Of a stretch of DNA of 64,000 nt, positions 1,330 to 62,356 are shown piece by piece; position 1 is the first letter of the stretch, and each line of letters begins with the position of its first letter. The notes below the pieces were generated by a model. That model saw only the letters and a program-made list of their open reading frames with translations. It searched no databases and had not been told where the DNA came from. Both the position numbers and the translations under genes were made by a program. Origin of the DNA: Candidatus Moraniibacteriota bacterium (GTDB lineage Bacteria > Patescibacteriota > Minisyncoccia > Moranbacterales > GWC2-37-73); the NCBI GenBank assembly GCA_003507445.1, contig DNVR01000019.1, positions 76,395 to 140,394 of the forward strand. The letters are read 5' to 3'.

Positions 1330-1335
1330 AATTAA

Positions 1336-17892: not shown

Positions 17893-19413
17893 ATGCAAAA
17901 AATAACAGTTCCAATCATTGGAATGCATTGCAAATCTTGTGAAATTCTTGTTGAAAATAAGCTTTCTGAAATCAGCAAGATCAAAAAAATAGACGTCAAT
18001 TGTAAGAAAGGAACAGCTGATATTTATTACGAATCTCAAAAACCCAATATGGTGGAAATAGAAAAAGCCATCAGGGAAGCGGGTTATGCGGTTGGAGTGG
18101 CAGAAAAAAAACCGTTGTTCAGTCGGAATATAAATGAATATAAAGATTTGGGGATCGCCTTTTTGTTTCTGTTTGGTATTTATTTGATTGCAAAAAATTT
18201 AGGGCTAGCTGACATTGGAGTAAGTTCCGCATCAAATCCATCGAGCTTGGGCGTGGTTTTCTTGGTGGGGATTACGGCTGGGATTTCAACTTGTATGGCG
18301 TTGGTGGGAGGTTTAATTTTGGGAATTTCTGCTCGTCATTCTGAGAAACATCCTGAGGCTACTGCCGCGCAAAAGTTTCGTCCGCATTTATTTTTCAATG
18401 CCGGCAGGATTGTGATTTACGCCTTGTTGGGTGGACTGCTTGGTTTGATCGGTTCTTCATTTCAATTGTCGGGAGTGACTTTGGGAATTCTGACAATTGC
18501 AGTAGGAGTTGTGATGTTGTCACTTGGACTAAAATTGATTGGAATTTTTCCTCGTTTGGAAAATGGTGGAATAGCTTTGCCGAAAAGCATCAGCAGTGCG
18601 TTGGGCATTCACCCTGTTAAATCCTGCGAAGCAGGTGCTCGCAGTAGCGAGCAATTTAACAGGGTAAAAAATAATACCAAAGAATATAGTCATAAAAATT
18701 CATTCGTTATGGGTGGACTGACATTTTTCTTGCCCTGTGGCTTCACGCAAGCGATGCAACTTTATGCTGTGAGCAGTGGAAGTTTCACTCAGGGTGCAAT
18801 GATTATGGGTATTTTTGCACTTGGAACAGCTCCTGGACTCTTGGGTATTGGCGGTCTGGCTAGTGTGGTGCGCGGAATTTTTGCTCAAAGATTTTTTAAG
18901 TTCGCTGGAATCCTCGTGATATTTTTGGCGATGTTTAATATTGCCAATGGATATAATCTGACTGGCTGGCAAGTGTCGAAAGTTGAAAGTCGAAAGTTGA
19001 AAGTTGAAAGTGTGATTGATCCTAATGTGACAATGGAAAACGGCGTGCAGGTTGTTAGAATGAAGGAAATTGCCAGTGGATATTCTCCGAACAAATTCAC
19101 AATCAAAAAAGACGTGCCAGTGAAATGGATTATTGATGCTCAGGCTCCGTATTCTTGTGCCAGCAGTCTTGTGGTTTCAAGTTTGAAAATTCAAAAAACT
19201 TTAAAGGCAGGCGAAAACATTATTGAATTTACACCAACAAAAACAGGTAAAATCCCATTTTCTTGTTCTATGGGTATGTATACTGGCGCATTCACAGTTA
19301 TTGATGAAAATAGTGATGAGGTGGTGGTTGAAGACGACCTGGTTGAAAAGCAGGCTTCTGGTGGAATATGCAATAAGCAAGGATGTAATATAAATAAAGA
19401 TCGAATTAAATAA
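17893..19413 (+). CDS. HMA-domain membrane protein (N-terminal MxCxxC metal-binding domain, multi-TM permease-like domain with conserved Cys, C-terminal cupredoxin-like domain)
   Basis: GMHCKSCE heavy-metal-associated motif, several TM helices (FLVGITAGISTCMALVGG and FFLPCGFTQAM), and a C-terminal beta domain with conserved Cys. An in-frame (GAAAGTT)n repeat lies at 18975-19012. Confidence 0.6.
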   Translation: MQKITVPIIGMHCKSCEILVENKLSEISKIKKIDVNCKKGTADIYYESQKPNMVEIEKAIREAGYAVGVAEKKPLFSRNINEYKDLGIAFLFLFGIYLIAKNLGLADIGVSSASNPSSLGVVFLVGITAGISTCMALVGGLILGISARHSEKHPEATAAQKFRPHLFFNAGRIVIYALLGGLLGLIGSSFQLSGVTLGILTIAVGVVMLSLGLKLIGIFPRLENGGIALPKSISSALGIHPVKSCEAGARSSEQFNRVKNNTKEYSHKNSFVMGGLTFFLPCGFTQAMQLYAVSSGSFTQGAMIMGIFALGTAPGLLGIGGLASVVRGIFAQRFFKFAGILVIFLAMFNIANGYNLTGWQVSKVESRKLKVESVIDPNVTMENGVQVVRMKEIASGYSPNKFTIKKDVPVKWIIDAQAPYSCASSLVVSSLKIQKTLKAGENIIEFTPTKTGKIPFSCSMGMYTGAFTVIDENSDEVVVEDDLVEKQASGGICNKQGCNINKDRIK

Positions 19414-19564: not shown

Positions 19565-22351
19565 ATGAAAAGAATAAACCTGTCTCTTTCTGGAATGCAC
19601 TGTGCTTCCTGTGCAATGTTGATTGAAAAAGTGCTTGCAAAAACTCCTGGTGTACAAAAAGCCAGTGTGAATTTTTCTGCAGAAAAAGTTTTGATTGATT
19701 TTGATGAAAATATAACCGATCCGCAAAAACTTATTGCTGCAATAGTTAAAGGTGGATATGGTGCTGAAGAAATTGATGCTAAAGATAGTGAATTTGAAAA
19801 GAAAAAAAGGGATCATGAGATCTCAGAATATTTTTCAAAATTTATGTTTAGCGCTTTGCTTAGTGTGCCGATGTTGTATTTTATGCTTTTGGATTTTTTT
19901 AAATGGCTTCCAGGGGAAAAAACTTTTGCGCCATACATTGGTGTGTTTTCATTGCTTTTGACAATTCCTGTGCAGTTTGTGATTGGTTCAGGCTTTTACA
20001 AGGGAATGTGGTCATCGCTAAGGATGAAGACGTTTAATATGGACAGCTTGATTGCAATTGGAACTTCGACTGCTTTTTTCTTCAGTTTGTATAACTATGT
20101 GACATATGTCATTGCTAATAATTCCTTGATCGGAGTTGGTGGTATGAAAATTCCTGATCTGTATTTTGAAACAGCAGCTTATTTGATCACATTTGTGATT
20201 CTTGGAAAATGGTTGGAAATTAGAACAAAGGGAAAGACATCTGATGCGATCAAAAAATTGATGGGGCTGCAAGCGAAAACAGCCCGCGTGATTCGTGGTG
20301 GCGAGACGCTTGATATTGCAATTGATGACGTGATTCATGGTGATATCATTATTGTTCGCCCTGGAGAAAAAGTTCCTGTTGATGGAAAAATTACCAAGGG
20401 AACATCTGCCGTGGATGAATCTATGATTACAGGAGAAAGCTTGCCAGTAGAAAAAAATATCGGAAGTATGGTTGTTGGTGGAACTATTAATAAGACAGGA
20501 AGCTTTGAGTTTGAAGCTACAAAAATTGGTTCAGAAACAACATTAGCTCAAATCATTCGCTTGATTGAAGAAGCGCAAGGATCAAAAGCACCGATTCAAA
20601 ATTTTGCCGACAGTATTTCTGCTTGGTTTGTTCCAGCTGTGATTGGAGTTGCAATTTTGACTTTCATTGTCTGGTATTTTTTCTTGGGAGCAACTTTAGC
20701 TTTTGCTTTGTTGGCATTTACTTCGGTAATTGTGATTGCATGCCCATGTGCACTTGGTTTGGCAACCCCGACATCATTAATGGTTGGAACAGGTAAGGGC
20801 GCTGAATATGGCGTGCTTGTAAAAGGTGGAGAAGCGCTTGAAGCTGCAAGCAATATTTCAGCTGTAGTCTTTGACAAGACTGGAACGCTTACCAAAGGAA
20901 AGCCTGAGGTGGTAAAAATAATTTCAAATCCTGCTTTTGATTTTGATGAGGATAAGATTTTAAAAATATCATCAAGCATTGCAAAACATTCCAATCATCC
21001 CTTGTCTCAAGCTGTTGTAAGATATGGCGAAAAACAAAATATTCAACTAGCTGATTTTGGAGATTTTCAAGAAGTCCCTGGAAAAGGAATAATTGCAAAA
21101 TGCTTAACACATAATAAGGAAATAGTTTTGGGTAATATTAGAATTCTAGAGCAAGTAGGAGTCCAAACTTCTTGGGCAAAAAATCTTCTGGAAAATGAAT
21201 CTGTAAGCGCTGGGACATTACTTTTTGTGGTGCATAATGGCGATGTTGTGGGGGCAATTTCAATTGCTGATGAAGTAAAAGAAGAATCAAAAAAAGTGGT
21301 GGCAAAACTTCAAAAAATGGGTATTGAGGTTTGGATGATTACTGGAGACAATGCGCGCACAGCAAAAGCTATTGGCTTGCAGGTTGGAATCACAAATATT
21401 TTGGCAGAAGTTTTACCAGAAGATAAAGCTAACGAAGTTAAGAAACTTCAAGCTCAAAAAATAAAAAAACATTTCCATTTGTTTGGAAATTGGAAATTAG
21501 AAATTGGAAATTCCACCCGCAGGGTGGCTATGGTTGGAGATGGAATTAATGACGCTCCTGCACTAGCTCAAGCTAATGTAGGAATCGCAATGGGATCAGG
21601 AACTGATGTGGCAATGGAGGCAGGCGACATTGTTATAATGAAAAGTGATCTGAATGATGTGGTAACTTCATTTGAACTTTCAAAAGAAACGATGGGTAAA
21701 ATAAGACAAAATATGTTTTTTGCTTTATTTTACAATGTGATTGGAATTCCAATTGCTGCTCGTGTTTTCTTTGGAATCGGCTTGGTGTTAAAACCAGAAC
21801 TAGCAGGACTTGCTATGGCGATGAGTTCTATTTCAGTAGTTGGAAATTCATTGCTTCTTAAATTATTCAAGCCTGGCAAGAGAAACTATATTTCTTTGGT
21901 TGCGCCAATTATTATGATGGTAGTTTTCACGTTCGGATTTTATGAATTTGCAAAATTCAGCAGTGGAATGGAGAATACAGTTATTAATGAGGAGCAAATA
22001 AGGGTTGAATTTAATAAATTGAATTTGAATGCCCAAATAGAAATCATAAGTGAAGAGGCTGGAGTAAAGGCATTTTATTTTACTGATGAAAATAATGTTC
22101 CAAAAGAATTGCGGGAAGAAATAAACAGCAAAAGTTTCACGCCTGAAATAATCAATGGAAAAAAATATCAGAAAGTTTATATTGGTTGGGTAGAGGCGCA
22201 GATGATGATTGAAAAAGAACTTATCCAAAAATCAGGGGACAGAGCGGATGATTTTTTTGGAAACAGTGTCATCATTGAAATCTTGCCCAAAACCAAAACC
22301 ATTCTCGACAATTTCCATTTTGTCGGAGCTGATTTTCAGATCAAGAAATAG
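19565..22351 (+). CDS. copA: Copper-translocating P-type ATPase (CopA-like) with an N-terminal HMA domain, a ~170-aa C-terminal extension, and an in-frame heptamer-repeat insertion
   Basis: [11 protein letters not shown] ([12 protein letters not shown]), DKTGTLT, and [17 protein letters not shown]. The insertion [18 protein letters not shown] (21470-21514) falls just before the GDGINDAP hinge. Confidence 0.88.
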
Positions 22352-27464: not shown

Positions 27465-27600
27465 GTAAGAATTTCTAATGTCTAATTTCTAATATCTAAT
27501 AAAAAATTTAATGACAAAATGTCCAAAAGTTTCGTGCATTAGGAATTGGAAATTGATTAGAAATTGGTAATTAGGAATTAGAAATTAAAGATAAATTTAG
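27465..27600. repeat. Hairpin-forming (TTAGAAAT / AATTTCC)n repeat module in the divergent promoter region
   Basis: aatttctaatgtctaatttctaatatctaat ... attaggaattggaaattgattagaaattggtaattaggaattagaaatt (inverted halves). Confidence 0.55.
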
Positions 27601-28429: not shown

Positions 28430-30154
28430 ATGAAAAATGAAATTCAAAAATTAATAGAAAGTGCCTTAAATGAGGCAAAAAGGGCTAATGATTGGGTTGA
28501 TTTTGAGATGCCTGAAATTCTCGTTGAATATCCAAAAAGTGAACAATTTGGGGATTATACAACAAATGTTGCTATGATTTTAGCAAAAAAAGTTGGGAAA
28601 AATCCGATGGAAATAGCTGAGATTATTAACTTACAACTTACAACTTACAACTTACAACAATTTGAAAAAATAGAGGTGGCTCAGCCGGGATATATTAACT
28701 TTTATCTTTCCAAAAAGTATTTGCAAGAAATCGTTGAAAAAATAAATACTGAAAAAGAAAAATTTGGAAATTCTGATAAAAAAAATGAGAAAGTATTGGT
28801 AGAATTTTCACAACCAAATACTCATAAAGAATTTCATATCGGCCATTTAAGGAATGTGTTTATTGGAGATGCGCTTGTTAAAACGATAAAGAAATCCGGC
28901 AGCGAGGTAGTTGCTGCAAATTATATCGGGGACACCGGGACACATATTGCAAAGTGTTTATGGGGAATTGTTAAATTTCATAATGGGGAAGATTTGGATA
29001 AGATATCAAACAAGGCTGAATTTCTAGGAAAGGTTTACAGTGAAGCTGCACAGGCTATTGAGAATAATCCTGAATTCGAAGAAGAATTTAAAAATGTCCA
29101 AAAAGAATTTGAAAATGGTGATCAGGAATTGGTTCAATTGTGGAGCAAGACAAAAAAATGGTCGTTGGATGAATTTCAAAAGATTTATGAAAAACTCGGA
29201 GTATCTTTTGACGTTTACTTTTGGGAAAGCGAGGAAGAACTGAAAGGCAAGGAAATGCTAAAAGAATTGATGGGGGTATCCTGTATTAAGGAAAGTCAGG
29301 GAGCTATCGTGGCAGATCTTGAAAAATATGACTTAGGAGTTCTAGTGCTGGTCAGAAAGGACGGTAGCGCCTTGTATGGATTGAAAGATATACCTCTGGC
29401 TGTGAAAAAATTCAAAGAATTTTCCATAGATCGTAGCATAGTGGTTGTTGATTTGCGTCAGAGTCTATATTTCAAACAGATATTCAAAATTCTTGAATGC
29501 ATGGGATTTCACAAAGATATGAAACACGTGGGCTACGAGTTTGTATCCCTGAAGGGAAGTGAGACGATGTCGTCCAGGAAAGGAAACATCATACCAGCAA
29601 CATATTTGATTGATGAAACCGTAAAGCGTGTAAAGGAAAAATTTCCCAATACCGATGTTGCTGAAGAAATTGGCATAGGTGCGTTGAAATTTTATATGCT
29701 GAAATATTCCTCACAGTCAAAAATAGAATACGATATTGAAGAGTCTGTAAGATTAGATGGCGCAACCGGACCGTATGTACAATATGCGCATGCGCGTATT
29801 TGCAATATCTTGGAAAAGGCAAAGGGAATAAAAGGATTAATGGGAGAAAAGGGAAAAATGGGCAATGTGGATTTGCAATTATTAATCCATGAGAAGGAAG
29901 TAAGTTTGATAAAAGAGCTTAATAAATTTCCGGAATTGGTTGCTGTGGTTGCTGAGGATTATGAAGTTCACAAGTTTGCCCATTATGCCATCAAATTGGC
30001 TGACAAATTTCACAGTTTTTATGATGCTTGTAAGGTGATTGATGAGGGCAATGAAGAACTGACAATCGCTAGACTTTCTCTGATAAATGCTGTTAGAATA
30101 GTATTAGCAGAAACCCTGGATTTGATAGGGGTGGATGCACCTGAAAAAATGTAG
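28430..30154 (+). CDS. argS: Arginine--tRNA ligase with an in-frame (ACAACTT)n insertion
   Basis: HIGH-like region (FSQPNTHKEFHIGHLRNVFIGD), with KMSSRKG in the KMSKS position. The insertion NLQLTTYNLQQ is encoded by aacttacaacttacaacttacaacttacaa at 28626-28660. Start uncertain (28394 or 28430). Confidence 0.88.
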   Translation: MKNEIQKLIESALNEAKRANDWVDFEMPEILVEYPKSEQFGDYTTNVAMILAKKVGKNPMEIAEIINLQLTTYNLQQFEKIEVAQPGYINFYLSKKYLQEIVEKINTEKEKFGNSDKKNEKVLVEFSQPNTHKEFHIGHLRNVFIGDALVKTIKKSGSEVVAANYIGDTGTHIAKCLWGIVKFHNGEDLDKISNKAEFLGKVYSEAAQAIENNPEFEEEFKNVQKEFENGDQELVQLWSKTKKWSLDEFQKIYEKLGVSFDVYFWESEEELKGKEMLKELMGVSCIKESQGAIVADLEKYDLGVLVLVRKDGSALYGLKDIPLAVKKFKEFSIDRSIVVVDLRQSLYFKQIFKILECMGFHKDMKHVGYEFVSLKGSETMSSRKGNIIPATYLIDETVKRVKEKFPNTDVAEEIGIGALKFYMLKYSSQSKIEYDIEESVRLDGATGPYVQYAHARICNILEKAKGIKGLMGEKGKMGNVDLQLLIHEKEVSLIKELNKFPELVAVVAEDYEVHKFAHYAIKLADKFHSFYDACKVIDEGNEELTIARLSLINAVRIVLAETLDLIGVDAPEKM

Positions 30155-30156
30155 AA

Positions 30157-30245
30157 ATAACTAATAACAAACAACTAACTACTAACAACAAGGGCTTAAC
30201 AAAGCATTTCTGTTATAAGTTGTAAGTAGTAAGTTGTCAGTTAAT
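30157..30245. repeat. Long imperfect hairpin built from ACAACTA / TAGTTGT repeat units (argS-glycosyltransferase spacer)
   Basis: caactaactactaacaac at 30167-30184 is inverted as gttgtaagtagtaagttg at 30225-30242. Confidence 0.55.
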
Positions 30246-31724: not shown

Positions 31725-34676
31725 ATGGCATTCAAAAAAGTTGATCCGAAACAATCATTTCCAGAGATGGAAAAAGAAATTTTGAAATTTTGGGCTCAGG
31801 AGAAAATATTTGAAAAATCTTTGGAAATCCGAAAAGATTCACAGGAATATACTTTTTATGATGGGCCGCCTTTTGCAACAGGCACGCCACACTATGGTCA
31901 TTTGGTTGGATCCACAATGAAAGATGTGGTGCCGCGTTATTGGACGATGCGTGGATTTCACGTGGAAAGAAAATGGGGATGGGATTGTCATGGGCTGCCG
32001 ATTGAAAATATCGTGGAAAAAGAATTAGGTTCAAAAGCTAAAAGTGAAATTGAAAAATTGGGCGTGGAAAAATTTAACGAACTTTGTCGTAGTAAAGTTC
32101 TGGAATATGTTGACGTCTGGAAAGTTGTCATCAATCGTTTGGGACGCTGGGCTGATATGGAAAATGCTTACAAGACGATGGATTTGCCGTATATGGAATC
32201 TGTCTGGTGGGTCTTTAAGGAGCTTTGGAATAAGGGTCTTATTTATGAAGGTTATCGTTCGATGCACGTTTGTCCTCGCTGCGAGACTACACTTTCTCAG
32301 CAAGAGGTTAGTGAAGGATATATTGATGTGAAAGATTTATCAGTTATTGCGAAATTCGAACTTATTGACCCCGTAAAATCCTCGCAAGACTCGGATCACG
32401 GGGCAGGTGAACCGAAGACTTTCATTTTGGCCTGGACAACAACTCCTTGGACTTTGATTGGTAATGTGGCGCTAGCTGTTAATCCAGAAATGGAATATGT
32501 CTATGTGGAAACAATAAACTCGGAAAAAGATGGAACATTTTCGGAAGAAGTTTTTATTGTGGCTAAAGATAGAGTGGGTGATTTATTTAAAGATAAAAAA
32601 ATTGAAATCGTGCGTGAAGTTTTAGGTTCACAATTGGTTGGCAAAAAATATAAACCAGTTTTTGATTATTACGCTACGTTTGATATTGAAAATTTTGAGA
32701 ATGGTTGGAAAGTTGTGGGCGCAGATTTTGTGGGAGCTGAAGACGGAACAGGCGTTGTGCATATTGCTCCGGCCTTCGGAGAGGACGATTTAAATTTGGG
32801 CAAAGAAAAGAATTTGCCGTTTGTGCAGCACGTTGGAATGGATGGAATCATAAAAAGCCAAGCTGGCGAATTTGCTGGACTGCATATAAAACCAACTGAT
32901 GATCGCACTGCAACTGACGTGGAAATTATAAAATATCTGGCTAAAAGCGGAACTCTTTTTGCCAAAGAAAAATATGAGCATAGTTATCCTCATTGTTGGA
33001 GATGTGACACTCCACTAATGAATTATGCAACCAGCTCTTGGTTTGTGAAAGTTGCTGATATAAAATCAGATGCAATTGATTTGGCCAAAGAAATTCGTTG
33101 GTCTCCTGAACATATTAAGGAGGGACGTTTTGGAAAGTGGCTGGAAGGTGCACGCGATTGGTCAATTTCACGTCAGCGTTTTTGGGCTTCTGTTATACCA
33201 ATTTGGAAATGTGAGTGCGGAGAAATGAAGGTGTTTGGATCCGTGATGGAGCTCGAGGCTGCTAGTGGAGAAAAAATAACAGACCTGCATAAACACATTG
33301 TCGATAAAATTGTGCTTAAATGTGATTCTTGCGGCAAGGATATGCATCGAGTGCCAGATGTCTTGGACACTTGGTTCGATTCTGGTTCAATGCCATATGC
33401 GCAACAACATTATCCTTTTGAAAATGCTGAGCAATTTGAAAAGAATTTTCCAGCTGAATTCATTGCGGAAGGTGTGGATCAAACACGCGCTTGGTTTTAT
33501 TATTTGCATATTATTGCAAGTGCAATTAAAAAAGCTCCTGCTTATAAAAATGTAATTGTGAACGGAACAGTTTTGGCAGAGGATGGAAAGAAAATGAGTA
33601 AGCGTCTTTCGAATTATCCTGATCCAATGGAAATGTTTGAAAAATATGGTGCAGATTCAGTTAGATTTTATTTGATGAGCTCACCAGTGGTGGCTGCACA
33701 AAATTTGAATTTTTCAGAAAAAGATGTGGCAGAAATTGTGCGTGGAATGATGCGAATGTTTTGGAATTCGTATTCCTTTTTTGTGCTGTATGCAAATATT
33801 GATAAATGGGAACATAAAGACCAATTCACACATTCAACTGCAACGAATTTATTGGATCGTTGGATTCTTTCTGAGCTTAACACTTTGGTAATTTCAGTGC
33901 ATAGCGGAATGGAAAACTATGAATTGCATCGAGCTGCTCGAGCATTTCCAAAATTTATTGATGATATGTCCAACTGGTATGTTCGAAGATCGCGCAAGCG
34001 TTTTTGGAAAAGTGAAAATGATGGCGACAAAAGCCAGGCATATGCAACACTTCATCACGTGCTTGTGACACTGACTAAAATGATGGCACCGTTTTCACCT
34101 TTTATCGCTGAAGAAATTTATAAAAATCTTACTGGCAAGGAGTCTGTGCATTTGGCTGATTTGCCGACAGGGGATTATCATCACGTCGATGAGCTTTTGA
34201 ATGATCAAATGCACAAAGTTCGTGAGATTGTGACTCAAGGTTTGCAACTTCGCTCTCAAGCTAAAATCAAAGTTCGTCAACCGCTGGCTAAATTTTCAAT
34301 TTTCGATTTTCAATTTCCGAATGAATTGGTTGAGATAATCAAGGATGAATTGAATGTGAGAGAAATTATTATGGATCGGGAAGATAAAAATGAAATGATT
34401 TTGGATACAGAAATCACAGAAGATCTTGCGCAAGAAGGTGTGGCACGTGAGATTGTGCGGCACATTCAAGAGATGCGTAAAGAAGCAGGCTATGATGTTG
34501 ACAATCGCATTAAAGTGTGCTATAATGGAAAATCAGAGGAATTTGAGAAGTTTAATGCTCTGATTGCCAAAGAAACCCTTGCTGACGCCATTACTGAAGG
34601 TGTTTGCCAAGACGCTGATTTGACCAAGGAACTTAAATTAGACGAAAAAGTGCTAGTAATTTCTATTAAAAGATGA
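31725..34676 (+). CDS. ileS: Isoleucine--tRNA ligase
   Basis: PPFATGTPHYGHL (HIGH), KMSKRL (KMSKS), and a CP1 editing domain. A possible in-frame repeat-derived segment KFSIFDFQFPNE lies at 34290-34319. Confidence 0.93.
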   Translation: MAFKKVDPKQSFPEMEKEILKFWAQEKIFEKSLEIRKDSQEYTFYDGPPFATGTPHYGHLVGSTMKDVVPRYWTMRGFHVERKWGWDCHGLPIENIVEKELGSKAKSEIEKLGVEKFNELCRSKVLEYVDVWKVVINRLGRWADMENAYKTMDLPYMESVWWVFKELWNKGLIYEGYRSMHVCPRCETTLSQQEVSEGYIDVKDLSVIAKFELIDPVKSSQDSDHGAGEPKTFILAWTTTPWTLIGNVALAVNPEMEYVYVETINSEKDGTFSEEVFIVAKDRVGDLFKDKKIEIVREVLGSQLVGKKYKPVFDYYATFDIENFENGWKVVGADFVGAEDGTGVVHIAPAFGEDDLNLGKEKNLPFVQHVGMDGIIKSQAGEFAGLHIKPTDDRTATDVEIIKYLAKSGTLFAKEKYEHSYPHCWRCDTPLMNYATSSWFVKVADIKSDAIDLAKEIRWSPEHIKEGRFGKWLEGARDWSISRQRFWASVIPIWKCECGEMKVFGSVMELEAASGEKITDLHKHIVDKIVLKCDSCGKDMHRVPDVLDTWFDSGSMPYAQQHYPFENAEQFEKNFPAEFIAEGVDQTRAWFYYLHIIASAIKKAPAYKNVIVNGTVLAEDGKKMSKRLSNYPDPMEMFEKYGADSVRFYLMSSPVVAAQNLNFSEKDVAEIVRGMMRMFWNSYSFFVLYANIDKWEHKDQFTHSTATNLLDRWILSELNTLVISVHSGMENYELHRAARAFPKFIDDMSNWYVRRSRKRFWKSENDGDKSQAYATLHHVLVTLTKMMAPFSPFIAEEIYKNLTGKESVHLADLPTGDYHHVDELLNDQMHKVREIVTQGLQLRSQAKIKVRQPLAKFSIFDFQFPNELVEIIKDELNVREIIMDREDKNEMILDTEITEDLAQEGVAREIVRHIQEMRKEAGYDVDNRIKVCYNGKSEEFEKFNALIAKETLADAITEGVCQDADLTKELKLDEKVLVISIKR

Positions 34677-35802: not shown

Positions 35803-35874
35803 GATTGCAAAGTATTTTTTTGAATAAATAATAGCTATATGTAAATATTGAATTTTGTAATGTTTATTAAGTTA

Positions 35875-36000
35875 TCAAATTTCCAATTTCAAATTTCCAA
35901 TTTCCAATAAAATCATAATGACTAAATTTTAAATGACCAAACTTGAGTTCATAATTGAAAATTTAATGAGAATTGAGAACTGAAAATTGAAAATTATGGA
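35875..36000. repeat. Hairpin-forming (AATTTCC)n / (GAAAATT)n repeat module
   Basis: aaatttccaatttcaaatttccaatttccaat ... ttgaaaatttaatgagaattgagaactgaaaattgaaaatt. Confidence 0.55.
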
Positions 36001-38064: not shown

Positions 38065-39261
38065 GTGATGTTTGAATTATTATCACAAAAAAATAATAGA
38101 CGTATTGGAAAACTGCACACTAAAAGCGGAGTTATTGAAACACCGTTTTTTATGCCGATTGCAACCAAAGGTGCAGTAAAAAATGTTTCGCCCGAGGATT
38201 TGATTGCTATTGGGGCGCAGATTGTGCTTGGAAACACTTATCATCTTTGGCTTAGGCCGGGAGATGAGCTTATTGCTAAGGCTGGTGGACTTCATAGATT
38301 TATGAATTGGGATGGCCCTATTTTGACAGACTCGGGAGGATATCAAGTTTTTTCTTTGGGTGCGCGCGCCAAGGAAAAATATGGATCAAGTGGAGTTTCA
38401 CTTGATGAAAAAGGCGTTAGTTTTGTTGATCCAACCAATGGTAGTAAACACTTTATGTCGCCAGAAAAATCCATTGATATTCAACTTAATCTTGGTAGTG
38501 ATATTGTTATGGTGCTGGATGAATGCCCACCCTTTCCTTGTTCTCACGAGGATGCAAAAAAATCTTTGGAGCTTACAACAAGGTGGGCAGCTCGTTGTTT
38601 CAAGCATTTTCATAAAAAGGTCGCTGAAAATTCGGAAAAATATGCAAAGGGCAGACCGCTTTTGTTCTGTATAGTGCAGGGAAGTATATATGAAGACTTG
38701 AGGAAAGAGAGCGTGCATCAATTGATGAATATTGAATTTTCCGCTTTGGGCGGACCAGTCTCAGGTTGGGATGGATATGCCATCGGGGGTGTGGCAGTAG
38801 GAGAGCCTAGAAAACATCTTTATGATATTTTGCAGTGGGTGGTTCCATTTTTGCCAACTGACAAACCTCGCTATTTGATGGGCCTGGGTAAACCAGAAGA
38901 ATTGGTGGCTGCAGTAGAAGCGGGAATGGATATGTTTGATTGCGTTATTCCTACACGCGAAGGAAGACATGGGCGCCTCTTCCAGTGGAAGAGAATTTCC
39001 AATTTCCAATTTCCAATTTCCAATGACAAGGAATGCGTTGATTTGCAAGGTGATTTTTATGAAACTATAAACATCAATAATGAACAATTCAAGGAAGATT
39101 TTACCCCTATAGATTCGCAGTGTGATTGTTATGCTTGTAAAAACTTCACTAAGGCTTATCTTAATCACTTGCTTAGGACTGATGAGCCATTCTTTTTGAA
39201 ACTTGCTTCGGTGCATAACCTGAGATTTTATCATAGACTAATGGAACTTCTTCGTAAATAA
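38065..39261 (+). CDS. tgt: Queuine tRNA-ribosyltransferase with an in-frame (AATTTCC)4 insertion
   Basis: TPFFMPIATKGAV, LGNTYHLWLRPG, DSGGYQVFSLG, and a C-terminal Zn site (CDCYACKNF). The inserted peptide NFQFPISN is encoded at 38994-39023. Confidence 0.9.
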   Translation: MMFELLSQKNNRRIGKLHTKSGVIETPFFMPIATKGAVKNVSPEDLIAIGAQIVLGNTYHLWLRPGDELIAKAGGLHRFMNWDGPILTDSGGYQVFSLGARAKEKYGSSGVSLDEKGVSFVDPTNGSKHFMSPEKSIDIQLNLGSDIVMVLDECPPFPCSHEDAKKSLELTTRWAARCFKHFHKKVAENSEKYAKGRPLLFCIVQGSIYEDLRKESVHQLMNIEFSALGGPVSGWDGYAIGGVAVGEPRKHLYDILQWVVPFLPTDKPRYLMGLGKPEELVAAVEAGMDMFDCVIPTREGRHGRLFQWKRISNFQFPISNDKECVDLQGDFYETININNEQFKEDFTPIDSQCDCYACKNFTKAYLNHLLRTDEPFFLKLASVHNLRFYHRLMELLRK

Positions 39262-54035: not shown

Positions 54036-55094
54036 ATGGATATTAAGAAACTGCAGCAATTTTTGCAAGAAAATAATTTGCCTAAGTTTCGTTTGGGGCA
54101 AATTCAAAAAGCCATCTTTACTGATGGCGTTTCTTCGTTTGGGGAAATAACAACACTTTCCAAGGATTTGCGAGAAAAAATGGAAAAGGAAATGCGGTTG
54201 CTTTCTTTTGATGTTGAAAAAGTTTTAGTGGCTAAGGATGGACAATCAATAAAAGCTTTGTTAAAACTTTCTGATGGAGAGTTGATTGAAACTGTTTTGA
54301 TTTCGCCTAAGCCAGAAATTTGGTCAGCTTGCATTTCTTGCCAAGTCGGCTGTGCGATGGGTTGCAGGTTTTGCGCGACTGGCAAGATGGGGTTCAAGCG
54401 TGACCTTACCGCTGAAGAAATTACTGATCAAATTTTATTTTGGAAACAATATCTTAAAAAAAATTCTTCTGCTTTGTTTGGAAATTGGAAATTGGAAATT
54501 GGAAATTGCGATGTTGATAACATCGTCTATATGGGTATGGGAGAGCCATTTAATAATTGGAAAAATGTTGCTGAGAGTATAAAAGTTTTGACTGATGAAA
54601 AGTTATTTGGATTTGGCTCACGTTCTTTGTCTGTTTCCACTTCGGGCATCGCCGACGGCATTGAAAGAATGGCTAATGAATTTCCGCAAGTTAATTTGGC
54701 AATTTCCCTTCATTTTGCGAGCGACGAAAAACGCGACCGATTTATGCCAGTCAATAAAAAAGATAATCTGGAAAATTTGCGACAAGCGCTGAAAAAATAT
54801 TTTCAAATTACAACGCGTAAAGTTTTTTTGGAGTATATTATGTTGGATGGAATAAACGACACTGCCCTTGATGCAAAGTTGCTGGCTGATTTTATATATT
54901 CAATTGGTAACACCCATCTTCTTCATATGAATCTCATTCGATACAATATGACAAGCGAGGACCTAAAGCCATCTTCAAAAACTCGCACGCAACTTTTCAA
55001 ACAAGAACTTGAAAAACACAACATTAACGCTACCATAAGAAAAAGTCTCGGCGAAGAAATCGAAGCCGCCTGCGGACAACTTGCTGGTAAGTAG
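54036..55094 (+). CDS. rlmN: 23S rRNA (adenine2503-C2)-methyltransferase RlmN (radical SAM) with an in-frame (GGAAATT)3 insertion
   Basis: CISCQVGCAMGCRFCATG (CxxxCxxC), MGMGEP, and a conserved C-terminal Cys. The inserted peptide GNWKLEIGN is encoded at 54477-54502. Confidence 0.9.
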   Translation: MDIKKLQQFLQENNLPKFRLGQIQKAIFTDGVSSFGEITTLSKDLREKMEKEMRLLSFDVEKVLVAKDGQSIKALLKLSDGELIETVLISPKPEIWSACISCQVGCAMGCRFCATGKMGFKRDLTAEEITDQILFWKQYLKKNSSALFGNWKLEIGNCDVDNIVYMGMGEPFNNWKNVAESIKVLTDEKLFGFGSRSLSVSTSGIADGIERMANEFPQVNLAISLHFASDEKRDRFMPVNKKDNLENLRQALKKYFQITTRKVFLEYIMLDGINDTALDAKLLADFIYSIGNTHLLHMNLIRYNMTSEDLKPSSKTRTQLFKQELEKHNINATIRKSLGEEIEAACGQLAGK

Positions 55095-55625: not shown

Positions 55626-57331
55626 ATTTTTTTAACTAAATAAGTTTGACTTAGTTTGTATCCTTGTTTTCTGTAGTATCCTCTCACTCCCACTCCTGAA
55701 ATTACTACAATTTTTTTGAGGTCGTATTCTTCTTTGGCAATTCTTTCAGCTTCTAATAATAATTTTTTGCCAAGGCCGATGTGTTGTGGGGAAGTTGAAT
55801 CTAGCGTGTCTATTTTTGTTAGTTTTCCGTAAGTGTGAACTTCTCTAATGATGGCTGCATTTTTTAGAACTGGAAGCATATCATGAAGTTTGTCATGCTG
55901 AACTTGTTTCAGCATCTCGTTTGGCATATTGACTTTGCTGGATCCTGAAACAAGTTCAGCATGACACGTTGAACTTGGGATGCGTAGACGCAATAATGCA
56001 AACAATTTTTTCTTGTCCGGTGAAACATATTGCAGAAATATTTCCTTGCCGTCTGAGGCAGCATAATCAATGCGATCTAAAACAATTTTTTCTTTTACAA
56101 TATATCCTGCACCAACTTCACGACAACGAATGCAAGGACAATTGGACTTAGGAATAATAATTTGTCTAAGATTGGAAACTGTCGGACCGGCCACAATGGA
56201 TGGAGTAGGAACATCGCGAATAAGGCGAGCAATGCGCACATATGGCGTGATTGCTTCGTTTTTTATCTTCACTACAAGCCTCTCAAACGCTTGATTTGTC
56301 AGTGGGACATACTTTTTCTTCTTCCAGATGTCATACAGCTCACTGTTTTTTAAAACGACTGTAGGGTATATCTTGAGCATATCAGGTTGAAATCTGGGAC
56401 CTTCAAAAAGGGCCTTAAACATCTCAAAATCGCGTTTTGGGGTGCTTCCCGGAAGTCCCGGCATCATATGATAGTTTATCTTAAAACCACTATCCTTGAG
56501 CATTTTGGTAGCATCTATGGTGCTTTGGATGAGGTGTCCACGCTTGTTTAATTCGAGTACATCATCATAAAGACTTTGCACACCAAGTTCAACTCTCGTG
56601 CAACCAAGTTGACGAAAGTTCAAAATTTCTTTTTCATCAATATAATCCGGCCGCGTCTCCAAAGTGAGCCCAATAATTCTATGTTTCGCTTTTTCGTTTC
56701 TCTTTTGCTCGCGCAGTAGTTTGTCATGCTGAACTTGTTTCAGCATCTCGCCAAGCTGTTTGGCACTTCTGGATCCTGAAATGAATTCAGGATGACAACG
56801 CGGATAATCGTTGGCAGCCTTAAAGCACCCGTAAATAAATTTTTTCTGATACGCCTTTGGCAGAAAAGAAAATGTTCCACCCATCACAATTAATTCAATT
56901 TTATCTGTGCGATGACCGTTGAGCTCCAATGAGCGCAAGCGGTTTTGAACTTGTCTATATGGATCAAACTGAGAATCAATTGCGCGCATCACAGCTGGTT
57001 CATTGGAGAGATAACTCTTAGGCATATCTTTCTCACTAGGACAATAAATGCATTTACCGGGGCAGGGATATGACTTGGTAAGCACTGCCACCACAGCCAC
57101 ACCGGATTGGGTGCGAATCAAGCGACTCATCAAGGCTTCTTCAAATTTTTCACTGCGTTTGATTTTCTTTTGCTCAACTAATTTATTATATCTATCTCGC
57201 AAATCAGCATTGGTAGGCATTGCAACTCCGAATTTTTTACAAAGACTTTTTTTGAGTTTGCCAAAATCTCCCTGATTTTCAGAAAGTTCGTTTATTGCGG
57301 AGATTATATAATTGTCGTAAGATTGGCTCAT
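55622..57331 (-). CDS. Elp3-like radical SAM/GNAT protein (tRNA wobble-uridine modification family) carrying two in-frame P2-MITE insertions
   Basis: CPGKCIYCP radical-SAM cluster and C-terminal GNAT motifs (HIGLGKKLLLEAERIA). Insertion peptides ...EMLKQVQHDKLL... and ...TCHAELVSGSS...EMLKQVQHDKLHDM... Start moved to 57331 out of the repeat. Confidence 0.75.
   Translation of the reverse strand: MSQSYDNYIISAINELSENQGDFGKLKKSLCKKFGVAMPTNADLRDRYNKLVEQKKIKRSEKFEEALMSRLIRTQSGVAVVAVLTKSYPCPGKCIYCPSEKDMPKSYLSNEPAVMRAIDSQFDPYRQVQNRLRSLELNGHRTDKIELIVMGGTFSFLPKAYQKKFIYGCFKAANDYPRCHPEFISGSRSAKQLGEMLKQVQHDKLLREQKRNEKAKHRIIGLTLETRPDYIDEKEILNFRQLGCTRVELGVQSLYDDVLELNKRGHLIQSTIDATKMLKDSGFKINYHMMPGLPGSTPKRDFEMFKALFEGPRFQPDMLKIYPTVVLKNSELYDIWKKKKYVPLTNQAFERLVVKIKNEAITPYVRIARLIRDVPTPSIVAGPTVSNLRQIIIPKSNCPCIRCREVGAGYIVKEKIVLDRIDYAASDGKEIFLQYVSPDKKKLFALLRLRIPSSTCHAELVSGSSKVNMPNEMLKQVQHDKLHDMLPVLKNAAIIREVHTYGKLTKIDTLDSTSPQHIGLGKKLLLEAERIAKEEYDLKKIVVISGVGVRGYYRKQGYKLSQTYLVKKI
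55892..55966. mobile_element. P2-family palindromic MITE inserted in-frame in the elp3-like gene (copy 1)
   Basis: gtcatgctgaacttgtttcagcatctcg ... gatcctgaaacaagttcagcatgac. Confidence 0.6.
56723..56797. mobile_element. P2-family palindromic MITE inserted in-frame in the elp3-like gene (copy 2)
   Basis: gtcatgctgaacttgtttcagcatctcg ... gatcctgaaatgaattcaggatgac. Confidence 0.6.
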
Positions 57332-57406
57332 GAAACATGAAACATGTAGCATGTAACAAAAAAGCTTTTTAATTCAGATTTGTTATATGTTGTATGTTAT
57401 ATGATA
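57332..57406. repeat. Composite heptamer-repeat cassette E3 in the divergent elp3/methyltransferase promoter region
   Basis: catgaaacatgaaacatgtagcatgtaac ... tttgttatatgttgtatgttatatgatatatg. Confidence 0.65.
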
Positions 57407-57407
57407 T

Positions 57408-58106
57408 ATGAAAATTGAAACTGCTAATAAAATTTTACAGGAGACTGAGCTGGGTTACGATCTGATTTCTAAGAAATTTTCCGAGACCCGGAAGCATTTT
57501 TGGCGTGGGCTGGAGTTCATAAAGGATTATACGCACAGCGGCGATAATGTTTTGGATTATGGCTGTGGCAATGGCCGCCTTTTGGAATTGTTGGCTGATA
57601 AAAATATAAATTATCAGGGAGTTGATGTTTCCCAGAAGCTCGTTGACCTTGCCAAAAGCAAATATACTGGAGAAAATATTGAGTTTTCCAAAATAAGCTC
57701 CAGTCAAATTAGCTTAGCATTTGAGACGGGATTTTTCAATACCGTTTATAGCATTGCGGTTTTTCATCATTTTCCTTCAAAAAAATATCGCGAGGATGTG
57801 GCAAGAGAACTTTATGAAAAAACAAAAGACGGTGGGTATATTGTGGTAACGGTTTGGTTTCTTTGGCAAAAAAAATATTTGAAAAATATTTTACAAAATT
57901 GGATTAATAAAATAAAAGGGAATAGCGCATTGGATTGGAATGATTGTTCAATTTCTTTTACGGATAACTCTGGAGCGCGGGTTGAAAGATTTCACCATGC
58001 CTTCACAAAGAGAGAACTGAAAAAACTTTTTGAACTAGTGGGGTTTAAAACAGAAAAATGTGAAGTTGTTGATGGAAGAAATATTTTGTACATAGGAAAA
58101 AAATAG
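57408..58106 (+). CDS. Class I SAM-dependent methyltransferase
   Basis: VLDYGCGNGRL is methyltransferase motif I. Confidence 0.75.
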   Translation: MKIETANKILQETELGYDLISKKFSETRKHFWRGLEFIKDYTHSGDNVLDYGCGNGRLLELLADKNINYQGVDVSQKLVDLAKSKYTGENIEFSKISSSQISLAFETGFFNTVYSIAVFHHFPSKKYREDVARELYEKTKDGGYIVVTVWFLWQKKYLKNILQNWINKIKGNSALDWNDCSISFTDNSGARVERFHHAFTKRELKKLFELVGFKTEKCEVVDGRNILYIGKK

Positions 58107-58867: not shown

Positions 58868-58958
58868 CAGACGTATAACATAAAATATAAAACATGGAGC
58901 ATGGAACATGGAGCAAGAATTTTTGATCCAATGATCTATGCTGTATGATCCATGATTC
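58868..58958. repeat. Composite heptamer-repeat cassette E4 upstream of trxB
   Basis: gtataacataaaatataaaacatggagcatggaacatggagc ... atgatctatgctgtatgatccatgattcatg, abutting the trxB ATG. Confidence 0.65.
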
Positions 58959-59876
58959 ATGATTTACGATTTAGCGATAATTGGCAGTGGACCTGCGGGG
59001 CTTTCGGCTTCGGTGTATGCTTCACGTTATGGAATTTCCAATGTGGTGATTGGTGGAATTTCAGGGGGGCTCACAACGCAAACTCATGAGATTGGAAACT
59101 GGCTTGGAACTGAAAAGATTAGTGGTTTTGATTTTGCACAAAAAGCTGAAGCGCATTGCAAAAGTTATGACAAAGCCGAAGTCGTTAATACTTTGGTTGA
59201 TGAAATTACTGAAAATGAAAACGGATACATTTTGTTTTTGAGTAATGGAAGTAAAGTTGAAGCAAAAACAATTTTGTTAGCGATGGGAACCAAGCATCGA
59301 CACTTGGGCGTGCCTGGGGAAAAAGAATTTGCTGGCAAAGGTGTTTCATATTGCGCAACTTGTGATGGATTTTTTTATCGCGGAAAAACCGTGGCAGTGG
59401 TTGGCGGAAATGATAGTGCTGCAGGCGCCGCTGTGTATTTGGGAGATATTGCTGAAAAAGTTTATTTGATTTATCGCGGGGAAAAACTTAGATGCGAAAC
59501 TTTTTGGGGAGAGTCAATCGGGAAAAATCCAAAAATAGAAAGTATTTTTATGACAAACATCAAAGAAATTAAGGGCGAGCAGAAAGTGGAAGAATTAATT
59601 TTGGACAGTCCATATAAAAATAGTGAAACATTGAAAGTTGATGGTGTATTTGCTGAAATTGGTAGTGATCCAAATACTGAATTGATAAAAAATTTGGAAG
59701 TCGAGTTGGATGAGCAAGGTTATGTGAAGATAGATACTTCTGGTAGAACCAGTAAGAAAGGTGTTTGGGCAGCAGGGGACATCACAACTGGCTCCGATAA
59801 GTTTAAACAAATTATTACTGCCGCCGCCGAAGGCGCAGTCGCTGCACATAGTATTCAAGAATTTTTGAAAAAATAA
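58959..59876 (+). CDS. trxB: Thioredoxin-disulfide reductase
   Basis: DLAIIGSGPAG (FAD-binding), CATCDG redox-active disulfide, and GGGNSA (NADPH-binding). Confidence 0.92.
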   Translation: MIYDLAIIGSGPAGLSASVYASRYGISNVVIGGISGGLTTQTHEIGNWLGTEKISGFDFAQKAEAHCKSYDKAEVVNTLVDEITENENGYILFLSNGSKVEAKTILLAMGTKHRHLGVPGEKEFAGKGVSYCATCDGFFYRGKTVAVVGGNDSAAGAAVYLGDIAEKVYLIYRGEKLRCETFWGESIGKNPKIESIFMTNIKEIKGEQKVEELILDSPYKNSETLKVDGVFAEIGSDPNTELIKNLEVELDEQGYVKIDTSGRTSKKGVWAAGDITTGSDKFKQIITAAAEGAVAAHSIQEFLKK

Positions 59877-60543: not shown

Positions 60544-60620
60544 AACTAACTAACAACTCACAACTAGCAACTAACAACGTTCATTTGTTGATAGTTGTAT
60601 GTTATCAGTTATAAGTTATT
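60544..60620. repeat. Hairpin-forming ACAACT / AGTTGT repeat module between the two tRNAs
   Basis: caactcacaactagcaactaacaacg ... gttgatagttgtatgttatcagttataagtt (inverted halves). Confidence 0.5.
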
Positions 60621-60622
60621 TT

Positions 60623-61143: not shown

Positions 61144-61357
61144 TCTTTGTTGTTTCAATGTATTTTGACCCGTCGATGGTGGCGGGTCTTTAATTTGACA
61201 AAAAACCGCAGATAATGTACACTTTAAATAAAGAAAGCCCCAGGGGCTTTTTAAAAAACCTTAAAATCATATAGCATATAGCATATAGCATATAGCAAAA
61301 ATACCAATAAAGTTGCTGTTTGCCTAAAATTGTTACATGTTACATGTTACATGTTAA

Positions 61358-62255: not shown

Positions 62256-62356
62256 TCATATAACATACAACATAGAACATAGAACAAGGGAATTCAGTAC
62301 TGCACGCTTCTGGCATATCTGCTCCATGTTCCATGCTCCATGTTCCATGAAGCATT
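62256..62356. repeat. Composite heptamer-repeat cassette E5 upstream of rplK
   Basis: catataacatacaacatagaacatagaaca ... ctccatgttccatgctccatgttccatgaagcatt, directly before the rplK ATG. Confidence 0.65.

Follow-up and report, generated by a model that had tools for sequence, protein, structure and literature searches.

Heptanucleotide repeats have been described in several groups of bacteria. [quoted passage not shown] The STRR repeats of cyanobacteria are also heptanucleotide simple-sequence repeats, as cited in a later paper (Mrazek 2007, cited in PMC4679880). Direct repeats of TAACTGA occur in marine Beggiatoaceae, some cyanobacteria and Bacteroidetes, where 2-6 copies are found, mostly in intergenic regions; the stop-containing orientation is excluded from open reading frames (ORFs) and the stop-free orientation is occasionally translated, as LSVISYQ (PMC4679880). 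Three further kinds of small repeat are comparable. Rickettsia palindromic elements (RPEs) are summarised as having 105-146 nt and a conserved consensus (Ogata et al. 2000, summarised in PMC3184786). The tandem repeats of Borgs are described as perfect, lying inside ORFs, adding disordered peptide, rapidly evolving and recently formed (PMC9879509). REP/BIME sequences are imperfect palindromes of ~35 nt whose head, GTAG or CGTC, is conserved, and they are associated with a RAYT transposase (PMC3733652, PMC3116915).

The stretch analysed here, called the window, comprises 64,000 nt from the genome of a groundwater Candidatus Moranbacteria (Patescibacteria, CPR). It contained 32 period-7 arrays of at least 24 nt, whereas first-order Markov simulations of its sequence led one to expect 0.1, and periods 4-6 and 8-12 gave 0-1 arrays each, at background. 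The excess of head-to-tail 7-nt units is far above chance. In the initial annotation of this DNA, six in-frame arrays of 7-nt units had been listed within conserved genes. All six were found in their places with every host ORF reading through, and five more in-gene arrays (four in uvrC and one in uvrA) had been overlooked (Table 1). The six arrays are members of a genome-wide heptanucleotide array class with diverse units. A typical array has ~4.4 units (30-31 nt), both within and between genes. Array lengths in the window were bimodal with a mode at 30-34 nt; of 119 (AATTTCC)n arrays, 52% measured 30-31 nt, 77% measured 30-33 nt and only 9% reached at least 35 nt. The preference for about four units was thus found both in the window and in the 119 AATTTCC arrays. 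When all units were counted, array density was ~3/kb in the non-coding 11.5% of the window vs ~0.2/kb in coding DNA, i.e., a ~15-fold difference. For the stop-free unit AATTTCC, which was found at many loci in many Patescibacteria, 96 of the 119 arrays (81%) in other Patescibacteria lay within open frames, close to the coding fraction, and (AATTTCC)x4 was read in frame in MnmA, an RluA-family synthase, LepA, TopA, LeuRS and LigA. A flank motif, AATGAC, follows several arrays and was rejected as a general feature, as TTYCNAATGAC occurs once in the window vs 0.67 expected. The literature searches made for CPR and Patescibacteria revealed no paper on heptamer repeats in these bacteria.

Table 1 Heptanucleotide arrays and hairpins of the window (positions are those of the window)
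Feature	Position	Strand	Unit or arms	Translation or setting
tgt array	38994..39024	+	AATTTCC x4.4, perfect	(R)ISNFQFPISN, aa 311-320
rlmN array	54478..54508	+	TTGGAAA x4.4, perfect	Translated in frame
copA 20-aa insertion	21464..21523	+	TTGGAAA x4.3 at 21483-21512, one variant unit
argS array	28628..28658	+	AACTTAC x4.4, perfect	NLQLTTYNLQ, N-terminal domain
ileS array	34289..34316	+	AATTTTC x3.7, imperfect	KFSIFDFQFP
HMA/DsbD/cupredoxin protein array	18975..19011	+	GAAAGTT x4.9
uvrA array	12778..12807	+	GAAAGTT-type	ELKVESSKSKE, between UvrA_inter and UvrA DNA-binding domains
uvrC array 1	16281..16319	+	AAATACC x5	KKIQNTKYQIPYT
uvrC arrays 2 and 3, abutting	16663..16736	+	ATGGAAC/ATGGAGC x5, then AAATACC x5
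uvrC array 4	17044..17071	+	AATTTCC x3.6	NLNFQFPISN, variable loop of endonuclease domain
Hairpin	1334..1409	.	ACAACTC-type and complement	Between rodZ-like gene and recA
Hairpin	3535..3616	.	CATGTAG / TGTTATA, G:U-paired	Between ssb and efp
Hairpin	4449..4538	.	CATGTAG / TGTTATA	Between rpsF and ssb
Hairpin	27470..27587	.	AATTTCT / ATTAGAA	Between divergent genes
Hairpin	30153..30242	.	AACTAAC / GTTGTAA	Fills spacer after argS stop codon
Hairpin	35873..35995	.	AATTTCC / TGAAAAT	Downstream of recO
Hairpin	57329..57411	.	CATGAAA / TGTTATA	Between divergent genes
Hairpin	58891..58973	.	CATGGAG / TGATCCA	Upstream of thioredoxin-reductase-like gene
Hairpin	60545..60619	.	AACTAAC / AGTTATA	Fills tRNA-Ala/tRNA-Ile spacer
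Hairpin	61264..61356	.	CATATAG / TGTTACA	Just downstream of terminator-like sequence
Hairpin	62257..62349	.	CATAGAA / TCCATGT	Fills nusG-rplK spacer

The in-gene arrays were translated into short, disordered loops and linkers whose sequence is unconstrained. In Tgt, the array lies within a variable loop after GRHGRLF, where this protein has 27 aa and PDB Tgt has 4; residues 312-322 had pLDDT <50 in an AlphaFold2 model and formed a coil between two strands. Some close Tgt orthologs lack the array and have an 11-aa loop instead. RlmN has an insertion of ~17 aa relative to Cfr (9p0p), and some close orthologs have a KIEGSFS loop without the array. The in-frame array reported for rlmN is present, although with 4.4 units and not the three first counted. 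The array matches the right arm of a hairpin element, and some orthologs have this element complete and in frame (L135-L153 compared); full hairpins are likewise translated in some Tgt orthologs. The CopA insertion, directly ahead of the GDGINDAP hinge, measures exactly 20 aa against the A. fulgidus CopA, and its array is preceded by a short complementary stub, CATTTCCATTT. Among 89 CopA homologs, 69 have a 5-aa linker of the DAGKK type and 20 have an insertion.

The remaining arrays are more varied in their relation to the host protein. At the argS site, the relative L007 has (GTCATCA)x3 and L008 has a palindromic element of ~90 nt. The array of the HMA protein falls in the linker that joins the DsbD_2 membrane domain to the cupredoxin domain; this linker is variable and is 8 aa longer than in the ortholog L220. 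The ileS array replaces residues of near-equal length (+1 codon) without net insertion, and at its position the sister species L007 has a non-repeat segment that is 3 nt shorter. In uvrC, arrays 2 and 3 lie between the UVR motif and the RNase H-like domain, and array 4 also replaces near-equal length (net +2 aa), with no real net insertion. The earlier view that the repeats are insertions therefore stands for tgt, rlmN and copA by comparison with solved homologs; the argS and HMA arrays sit at sites variable among relatives, and the ileS array is not an insertion. Other palindromic small repeats are inserted in frame in the window (55891-55966 and 18608-18668), and also at the same hot spots in relatives.

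Between genes, most arrays are paired in inverted orientation, and 11 such pairs form long, imperfect stems (folding energies, -19 to -39 kcal/mol). This agrees with the initial annotation, in which the array units had been said to form intergenic hairpins as well. Examples are the AATTTCC/TGAAAAT pair at 35873-35995 and the ACAACT-type pair at 30153-30242. The hairpin downstream of argS is kept in L007 with a difference of exactly one 7-nt unit. A sequence resembling a canonical terminator, with a G+C-rich stem and a T-run as judged by eye, is located at ~61233-61256. A possible strand bias of hairpin stability, by which the co-directional hairpins of the window fold better antisense to their flanking genes via G:U pairs, was absent in 40 hairpins from other loci (5:5 and 3:3) and was rejected as a small-sample effect.

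Since a 7-nt period is not divisible by three, the total lengths had been supposed to be selected to preserve the frame. This is true only trivially, in that frame-breaking insertions do not survive. A perfect-run length divisible by three was no commoner inside ORFs (38:36:22 for length modulo 3) than outside (9:9:5), so a tuning of array length to multiples of three inside ORFs was rejected; the array and its flanks together maintain the frame. Of the 11 in-gene arrays, 10 had a unit without stop codons on the coding strand, compared with 8-9 of 21 per strand for intergenic units and 52% of random heptamers. Where a GAAAGTT-type unit would place a TGA in frame, it is substituted, at both positions in the HMA protein (AGT CGA and AGT GTG) and by AGC in uvrA. 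Hence the in-gene arrays represent the translated survivors of selection. Among the 265 A+T-rich heptamer classes, only 39 are free of stop codons on both strands, including the AATTTCC and AAATACC classes, which would account for the dominance of AATTTCC/GGAAATT inside genes.

Taken together, the arrays are probably tolerated or selfish small repeats and not genetic switches, although considerable doubt attaches to this reading. In the mechanism proposed, out-of-register (7-nt) slippage or conversion during DNA synthesis would make the arrays and keep them periodic. Arrays of many different units would be formed, as a rule in inverted pairs giving long hairpins in intergenic spacers, and an array, a full hairpin or one arm may then land in or overwrite coding DNA. 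Selection would retain only the events that keep the frame, those that fall in surface loops or inter-domain linkers, and those whose units are without a stop in each of the three phases read. Comparison of orthologs showed that the unit can change in all copies together over time with length and periodicity unchanged. In orthologous copA and rlmN arrays, 24-52% of positions differ and the period-7 match is still 0.81-0.85 (background 0.27, 99th percentile 0.62); for example, GGAAATT has become GGGATTT in all four units in L216. When a genome-specific preferred unit was looked for, as a sign of a trans-acting factor, only three arrays were found in 23 kb of L220, a genome with a GGGATTT copA array. 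The encoded peptides diverge at orthologous array sites and the length is retained. On this reading, homogenisation of the units would be ongoing. Several observations count against this explanation. The sharp mode at 30-31 nt is against simple slippage, which predicts a decaying length distribution, and a slip of one unit within a gene would shift the frame, which is hard to reconcile with homogenisation in ORFs. Furthermore, the imperfect copA unit (TTA) is common to three lineages, with a non-G at the same position in two more, and frequent homogenisation should have erased it.

The arrays may instead be functional nucleic-acid elements, i.e., periodic binding sites or structures that a factor specific for single-stranded RNA or DNA would read in steps of 7 nt, or hairpins for RNA processing or stability, but we regard this as unlikely. 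Under this reading, selection would act on the nucleotide sequence even over coding sequence, as a dual use. Among orthologs in which synonymous sites have become largely randomised, the codons of the array are still identical in nucleotide sequence, as seen for tgt (six orthologs) and copA (L217 and L219, TTA variant unit included). The probability of identical codons given the same peptide was P = 0.018 to 8.5e-5 per pair for tgt, and 0.015 and 6e-4 for copA. Such identity beyond synonymous expectation is not predicted for a neutral by-product. The identity does not extend past the edges of the array; in copA, where moreover the left flanks show no relationship, recent recombination is therefore an unlikely source of the identical arrays. 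The shared imperfect copA unit, the retention of periodicity and length while the peptide changes, the array size fixed at ~31 nt, and the hairpins that fill the whole tRNA-Ala/tRNA-Ile and nusG/rplK spacers point in the same direction, as does the four-unit preference of the GGGAATC (Xanthomonas) and GGGGAYT (Nostoc) heptamers (PMC4692102). The A+T-rich unit AATTTCC was also found in unrelated MAGs with a G+C content of 63-65% (Nitrospirae, Gemmatimonadota), and is intergenic in L048, the sole case checked. This occurrence counts against the by-product explanation, and the position of the unit upstream of genes in the Nitrospirae counts for a functional element. On the other hand, many close orthologs do without the array (the 11-aa Tgt loop, the DAGKK CopA linker and the KIEGSFS RlmN loop), three different elements occupy one site in three relatives, and the units are very diverse in a single genome. 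An Rfam search of the window returned two tRNAs only and no match to the arrays, and no candidate binding factor emerged. A related and equally unlikely proposal is that the ~31-nt arrays are fixed-size nucleic-acid elements that are actively maintained, even inside essential genes, either by a dedicated process of copying or repair in which ~30 nt are rewritten from a 7-nt template, or by selection for a factor reading DNA or RNA in steps of 7 nt. If such maintenance were true, the housekeeping ORFs of Patescibacteria would hold a further layer of information besides the protein, and the peptide would be incidental.

It is rather improbable that the arrays derive from a non-autonomous mobile element, namely a MITE-, REP- or RPE-like hairpin inserted by a transposase and sometimes in frame, as are the Rickettsia palindromic elements. 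The phylogeny of Tgt is consistent with such movement: the carriers of the tgt array were monophyletic in 0 of 100 bootstrap trees, and the array-carrying ortholog P0003 grouped with the array-less P0011 in 67 of 100. The presence of AATTTCC at many loci in many Patescibacteria, the inverted pairs, the full hairpins translated in some RlmN and Tgt orthologs, the in-frame insertion into conserved genes at permissive sites, and the other palindromic repeats in frame at the same hot spots and at the two window positions given above would also fit. However, inspection of the 119 AATTTCC loci by eye revealed no conserved left-flank sequence, target duplication or shared loop, and none of the 36 window ORFs scanned with Pfam/NCBIfam matched a transposase family. 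Hairpin arms change by single 7-nt units, orthologous sites have different units with the length retained, and two arrays (ileS and uvrC array 4) replace sequence without net insertion. A phage origin was rejected, as (AATTTCC)x4 gave 1 match among 2.9 million viral contigs (IMG/VR), which also counts against a mobile element.

Copy number was fixed inside genes. Six independent assemblies of the same species from different samples (L001-L006) each reproduce whichever arrays they span, which rules out the assembly artefact considered in the initial annotation; over 21 kb, L001 has 46 SNPs relative to the window but not a single indel, and no array indel was found among the seven consensus sequences. 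The in-gene copy number is also invariant in species that are 15-30% diverged, and one intergenic arm varies by one unit. The suggestion that the arrays are contingency loci with repeat-number polymorphism, in which slippage of a unit not divisible by three would switch genes on and off or vary proteins, is therefore very hard to sustain: gain or loss of one unit in an ORF would indeed cause a frameshift and two species do have one unit more or less in an intergenic arm, but there is no array indel in the six assemblies, tgt and copA orthologs with 69-85% nucleotide identity have equal copy numbers, the hosts are housekeeping enzymes (the tRNA synthetases ArgS and IleS, Tgt, RlmN, CopA, UvrA and UvrC) and not surface or restriction genes, and arrays have only ~4 units with no 1.4- or 7.4-unit alleles seen.

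Tandem repeats in ORFs whose unit would shift the frame are usually read as phase-variation switches. The arrays described here indicate that a repeat with a unit not divisible by three can live stably inside essential enzymes, and that the switch reading of such repeats should not be automatic. They account for part of the length variation and of the odd low-complexity peptides in CPR proteins, which matters when proteins of this large uncultured radiation are annotated and aligned and when their structures are predicted. Furthermore, the fixed size, the change of unit in all copies and the nucleotide conservation beyond synonymous expectation give a testable handle on the old question of why heptanucleotide repeats, frequently with about four units, are favoured in groups as far apart as cyanobacteria, Xanthomonas, Beggiatoaceae and now Patescibacteria.

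Compared with the known systems, the arrays are like the Xanthomonas, Nostoc and STRR repeats in having a 7-nt unit, with period 7 over-represented among long repeats, and in varying in length or sequence between close relatives (a one-unit intergenic indel and differing units at orthologous sites). Those repeats lie mostly between co-oriented ORFs; some of them form inverted pairs, as do arrays here. The preference for about four units is shared with Xanthomonas and Nostoc, and their units (GGRRATY) resemble GGAAATT here. In contrast to all these repeats, the units here are A+T-rich and diverse, 81% of the (AATTTCC)x4 arrays are in open frames, several of them in confirmed conserved enzymes, and the nucleotides are conserved across orthologs. 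The TAACTGA repeats are likewise heptamer direct repeats with a stop-dependent exclusion from ORFs and a patchy phylogenetic distribution. They differ in having a single favoured unit, usually placed just upstream of start codons, in having their in-ORF copies at protein termini or in hypothetical proteins and not in the cores of housekeeping enzymes, and in lacking reported hairpin pairing. Like the Rickettsia palindromic elements as summarised, the arrays are found in frame in conserved genes at permissive places as well as in intergenic regions; unlike the elements of that summary, they are tandem arrays of ~31 nt with many units, one-unit turnover and no conserved consensus. With the Borg repeats, in-ORF tandem repeats, disordered segments and independent origin at many sites are shared, whereas the size here is fixed at ~4.4 units of 7 nt and the copy number is stable. 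Unlike REP/BIME sequences, the hairpin arms here have a 7-nt period and many different sequences, and they share no conserved head.

The six in-frame 7-nt segments listed in the initial annotation were all found at in-frame positions, and their host genes were confirmed by NCBIfam and Pfam; the rlmN array, described as three units, has 4.4 (see table). Four further arrays were found in uvrC and one in uvrA. Two UvrA paralogs (12042-14936 and 24068-26860), the first of which alone has a heptamer array, lie in one 15-kb stretch together with uvrB, uvrC, recA, ssb and recO. The window has a G+C content of 35-40%, is ~88% coding and 11.5% non-coding, and carries most genes on the + strand with a strongly positive G+C skew; its Tgt protein matches one annotated from a Candidatus Moranbacteria MAG at 100% identity, and the relatives of this protein are Parcubacteria/Patescibacteria.

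Intragenic heptamer arrays at the six reported sites, as delimited by Tandem Repeats Finder
Array	Window position	Unit and copy number	Remark
tgt	38994-39024	AATTTCC x4.4	
rlmN	54478-54508	TTGGAAA x4.4	
copA	21483-21512		
argS	28628-28658		
ileS	34291-34316		imperfect
HMA/DsbD/cupredoxin protein	18978-19011		

When one scoring rule was used across periods 4-12, period 7 yielded 32 arrays with a length of 24 nt or more, versus 0.1 when the window sequence was simulated with a first-order Markov model, and every other period gave 0-1 arrays. At a threshold of at least 21 nt there were 37 arrays, about two-thirds of them intergenic. Their units were diverse (AATTTCC, ACAACTT/AACTAAC, CATGTAG, TGTTATA, AAATACC, GAAAGTT and others), and their lengths were non-geometric, with a mode of 30-34 nt that the window shares with unrelated loci. 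Two inverted array pairs had 8-nt units, TAGCTTCT/CTAAGAAG upstream of ileS (31578-31644) and a ACAAATCT-type pair between rplK and rplA (62783-62889), so the tandem-repeat hairpin architecture is not strictly confined to period 7.

Six independently assembled conspecific contigs from other samples aligned over 28-49 kb of the window with 99.6-100% identity, which rules out an assembly artefact; given also the 32 observed arrays, chance can be rejected as well. One of these contigs, L001, differed from the window by 46 clustered SNPs and aligned gaplessly through two intergenic hairpins and the arrays in argS, ileS and tgt. All 46 SNPs fell in three short clusters (31274-31492, 39153-39282 and 39513-39678), the pattern typically left by imported recombination tracts and not by scattered mutation. 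Repeat-number polymorphism had been proposed as a sign of contingency loci, but no array length differences existed among the conspecific assemblies at consensus level, and the sister species, ~82-85% identical in nucleotides, matched the window exactly over a 45-nt stretch comprising the tgt array and the sequence immediately flanking it; on this evidence the arrays are not contingency loci. One intergenic arm has exactly one unit more in one of the two species than in the other. Therefore, whole-unit slippage occurs, yet none was seen inside genes.

The hairpins that the same units had been said to form between genes were borne out. Intergenic arrays were mostly inverted pairs, 16-56 nt apart, that fold as long, periodically mismatched hairpins (-19 to -39 kcal/mol) and often occupy whole spacers, such as those 3' of the argS stop codon and in tRNA-Ala/tRNA-Ile, nusG/rplK and rpsF/ssb/efp. 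The adjacent tRNA-Ala(TGC) and tRNA-Ile(GAT) genes (60468-60697), of which Ala comes first, are separated by a heptamer hairpin alone, and no rRNA gene occurs anywhere within the 64-kb window. Because of G:U pairs, several hairpins (3535-3616, 4449-4538 and 62257-62349) are far more stable on one strand, for example -36.5 versus -13.3 kcal/mol. The more stable strand in the window was usually antisense to the neighbouring genes, a bias not upheld in 40 hairpins from other genomes.

The claim that the intragenic arrays are insertions held for tgt, rlmN and copA but not for ileS. Tgt has 27 residues where the PDB Tgt has 4, and RlmN and CopA have ~17 and exactly 20 extra residues, respectively, relative to solved homologs, those of CopA lying just ahead of the GDGINDAP hinge region. 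The length of the Tgt loop, with a baseline of 11 residues, ranged from 10 to 54 in 120 homologs of Moranbacteria type, and the CopA linker was of the 5-residue DAGKK type in 69 of 89 homologs, with an insertion in 20. In an AlphaFold2 model (mean pLDDT 81.9), Tgt residues 312-322 are predicted as coil between two strands, with pLDDT <50. The arrays of the HMA protein and uvrA lie in inter-domain linkers. The IleS array and the fourth uvrC array take the place of near-equal-length residues in homologs (in the sister species, ileS has a non-repeat segment 3 nt shorter), and therefore arrays are able to overwrite sequence besides adding to it. Other small repeats were also translated in frame. 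A palindromic element in the HMA/DsbD ORF (18608-18668; CACCCTGTTAAAT, 31 nt, ATTTAACAGGGT) adds 18 aa, PVKSCEAGARSSEQFNRV, that are missing in the ortholog at L220; a similar peptide is present in Tgt homolog P0089. In the radical-SAM ORF 55622-57352 (- strand), a repeat at 55891-55966 has two 26-nt arms, TGTCATGCTGAACTTGTTTCAGCATC and GATCCTGAAACAAGTTCAGCATGACA, and yields the peptide CHAELVSGS..MLKQVQHDK; its element family is also inserted in argS of the further relative L008 and shows up in several Tgt homologs as an 'SGLDPES..LNQVQDD' peptide.

The contents of these sites turned over among relatives. The argS site held (ACAACTT)x4, (GTCATCA)x3 and a ~90-nt palindromic element in three relatives. 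ArgS itself is mosaic: its N- and C-terminal parts are 82-92% DNA-identical to the sister species, and the core (28776-29888) is not alignable at the DNA level (HIGH region HIGHLRN versus HLGNGRG), which suggests that the catalytic core was replaced by recombination. The RlmN loop showed a 7-residue baseline in some relatives, arrays of other units in others and full in-frame hairpins in three; the window rlmN retains the right arm alone. Carriers of SNFQFPISN in Tgt were never monophyletic in 100 bootstrap NJ trees, and carrier P0003 paired with a non-carrier in 67 of them. In Tgt homolog P0013 (L133:3001-4236), the tgt array is interrupted in frame by a 21-nt quasi-palindrome rich in G+C, CCTTGCCTACCGGCAGGCAGG, which is translated as PCLPAGR. 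Related peptides of the types CLPxGR and LPDRQAG are found repeatedly in further CPR proteins, including rlmN in L137 and L151 and LigA in L069. This quasi-palindrome resembles the small dispersed repeats that have been reported within the heptamer arrays of Nostoc.

Unexpectedly, conservation was found at the nucleotide level. The tgt codons AAT TTC CAA TTT CCA ATT TCC AAT were identical in six orthologs at 72-85% nucleotide identity, and the 33-nt copA tract, variant unit included, was identical or one base off in three lineages at 69-72% identity, with unrelated left flanks. With same-codon frequencies estimated for each amino acid from the remainder of the gene pair concerned, the probability of identical codons given the same peptide was 0.018 to 8.5e-5 in tgt; in copA it was 0.015 and 6e-4. 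The pairs are phylogenetically non-independent. In two copA orthologs the unit was changed in every copy, GGAAATT to GGGATTT in L216 (4/4 units) and to GAAAATT in L218, with length unaltered and the third unit imperfect at the same base as before. Orthologous arrays 24-52% divergent kept a period-7 match of 0.81-0.85 versus a background of 0.27 and encode unrelated peptides, so what is preserved is the periodicity of the DNA and not the sequence of the protein.

Over 21 nt, translation passes through a 7-nt unit in each of the three phases, so none of them may contain a stop codon. Units were stop-free on the coding strand in 10 of the 11 arrays called intragenic (one of the 11, 3535-3566, is actually upstream of efp), versus 8-9 of 21 per strand for intergenic arrays and 52% of random heptamers. 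The exception, GAAAGTT, is substituted in the HMA protein and UvrA exactly at the in-frame TGA positions. Both strands are free of stops in only 39 of 265 A+T-rich heptamer classes, among them AATTTCC/GGAAATT and AAATACC, the commonest intragenic units in the window. This is evidence that intragenic arrays are translated and filtered by selection. Total lengths had been thought to be selected for frame; perfect-run length modulo 3 showed no enrichment of 0 in ORFs, and the frame is kept by the whole event, not by array tuning.

Exact matches to (AATTTCC)x4 were sought in a single genome for each species, which gave at least 119 loci. The matches listed were mostly Patescibacteria of many classes, with a few unrelated MAGs. 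A search of viral contigs gave one match. Among the 119 listed, 52% were 30-31 nt long, 77% 30-33 nt and 9% at least 35 nt; 96 had an open frame of at least 40 codons on both sides, 72 reading NFQFPIS and 24 GNWKLEI. The six hosts tested were MnmA, a RluA-family synthase, LepA, TopA, LeuRS and LigA. High-G+C MAGs with (AATTTCC)n were Nitrospirae (L036, L048 and L087; 63-65% G+C), Gemmatimonadota (L028) and Verrucomicrobiota (L018); the L036 array has ~17 units, and the L048 array, the one case checked, is intergenic between divergent genes. Horizontal spread, shared function or mis-binned contigs are possible explanations.

The arrays are most economically read as one class of heptanucleotide repeats, often hairpin-paired, that would be tolerated or selfish DNA translated as loops. 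Slippage or conversion in a 7-nt register would generate and homogenise the arrays, and selection would filter those inside genes. This reading is incomplete, as the sharp 31-nt size, the shared imperfect copA unit and homogenisation free of frameshifts are unaccounted for; because of these three facts, it is still considered that the arrays may function as nucleic acids or that a dedicated mechanism may rewrite the tracts, though we think this rather unlikely. Given that neither conserved ends nor conserved flanks were seen, an element moved by a transposase is less likely.

The literature searched did not yield any account of heptamer arrays from CPR. New here are the host lineage, the fact that the arrays routinely reside in frame within core enzymes, and the nucleotide-level upkeep of periodicity. 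In many prokaryotes, heptanucleotide repeats are reported to outnumber all other long simple-sequence repeats (Mrazek 2007, cited in PMC4679880). TAACTGA repeats are mostly intergenic and intragenic only peripherally (PMC4679880), and the classic case of in-frame inserted repeats is that of the Rickettsia palindromic elements (PMC3184786).
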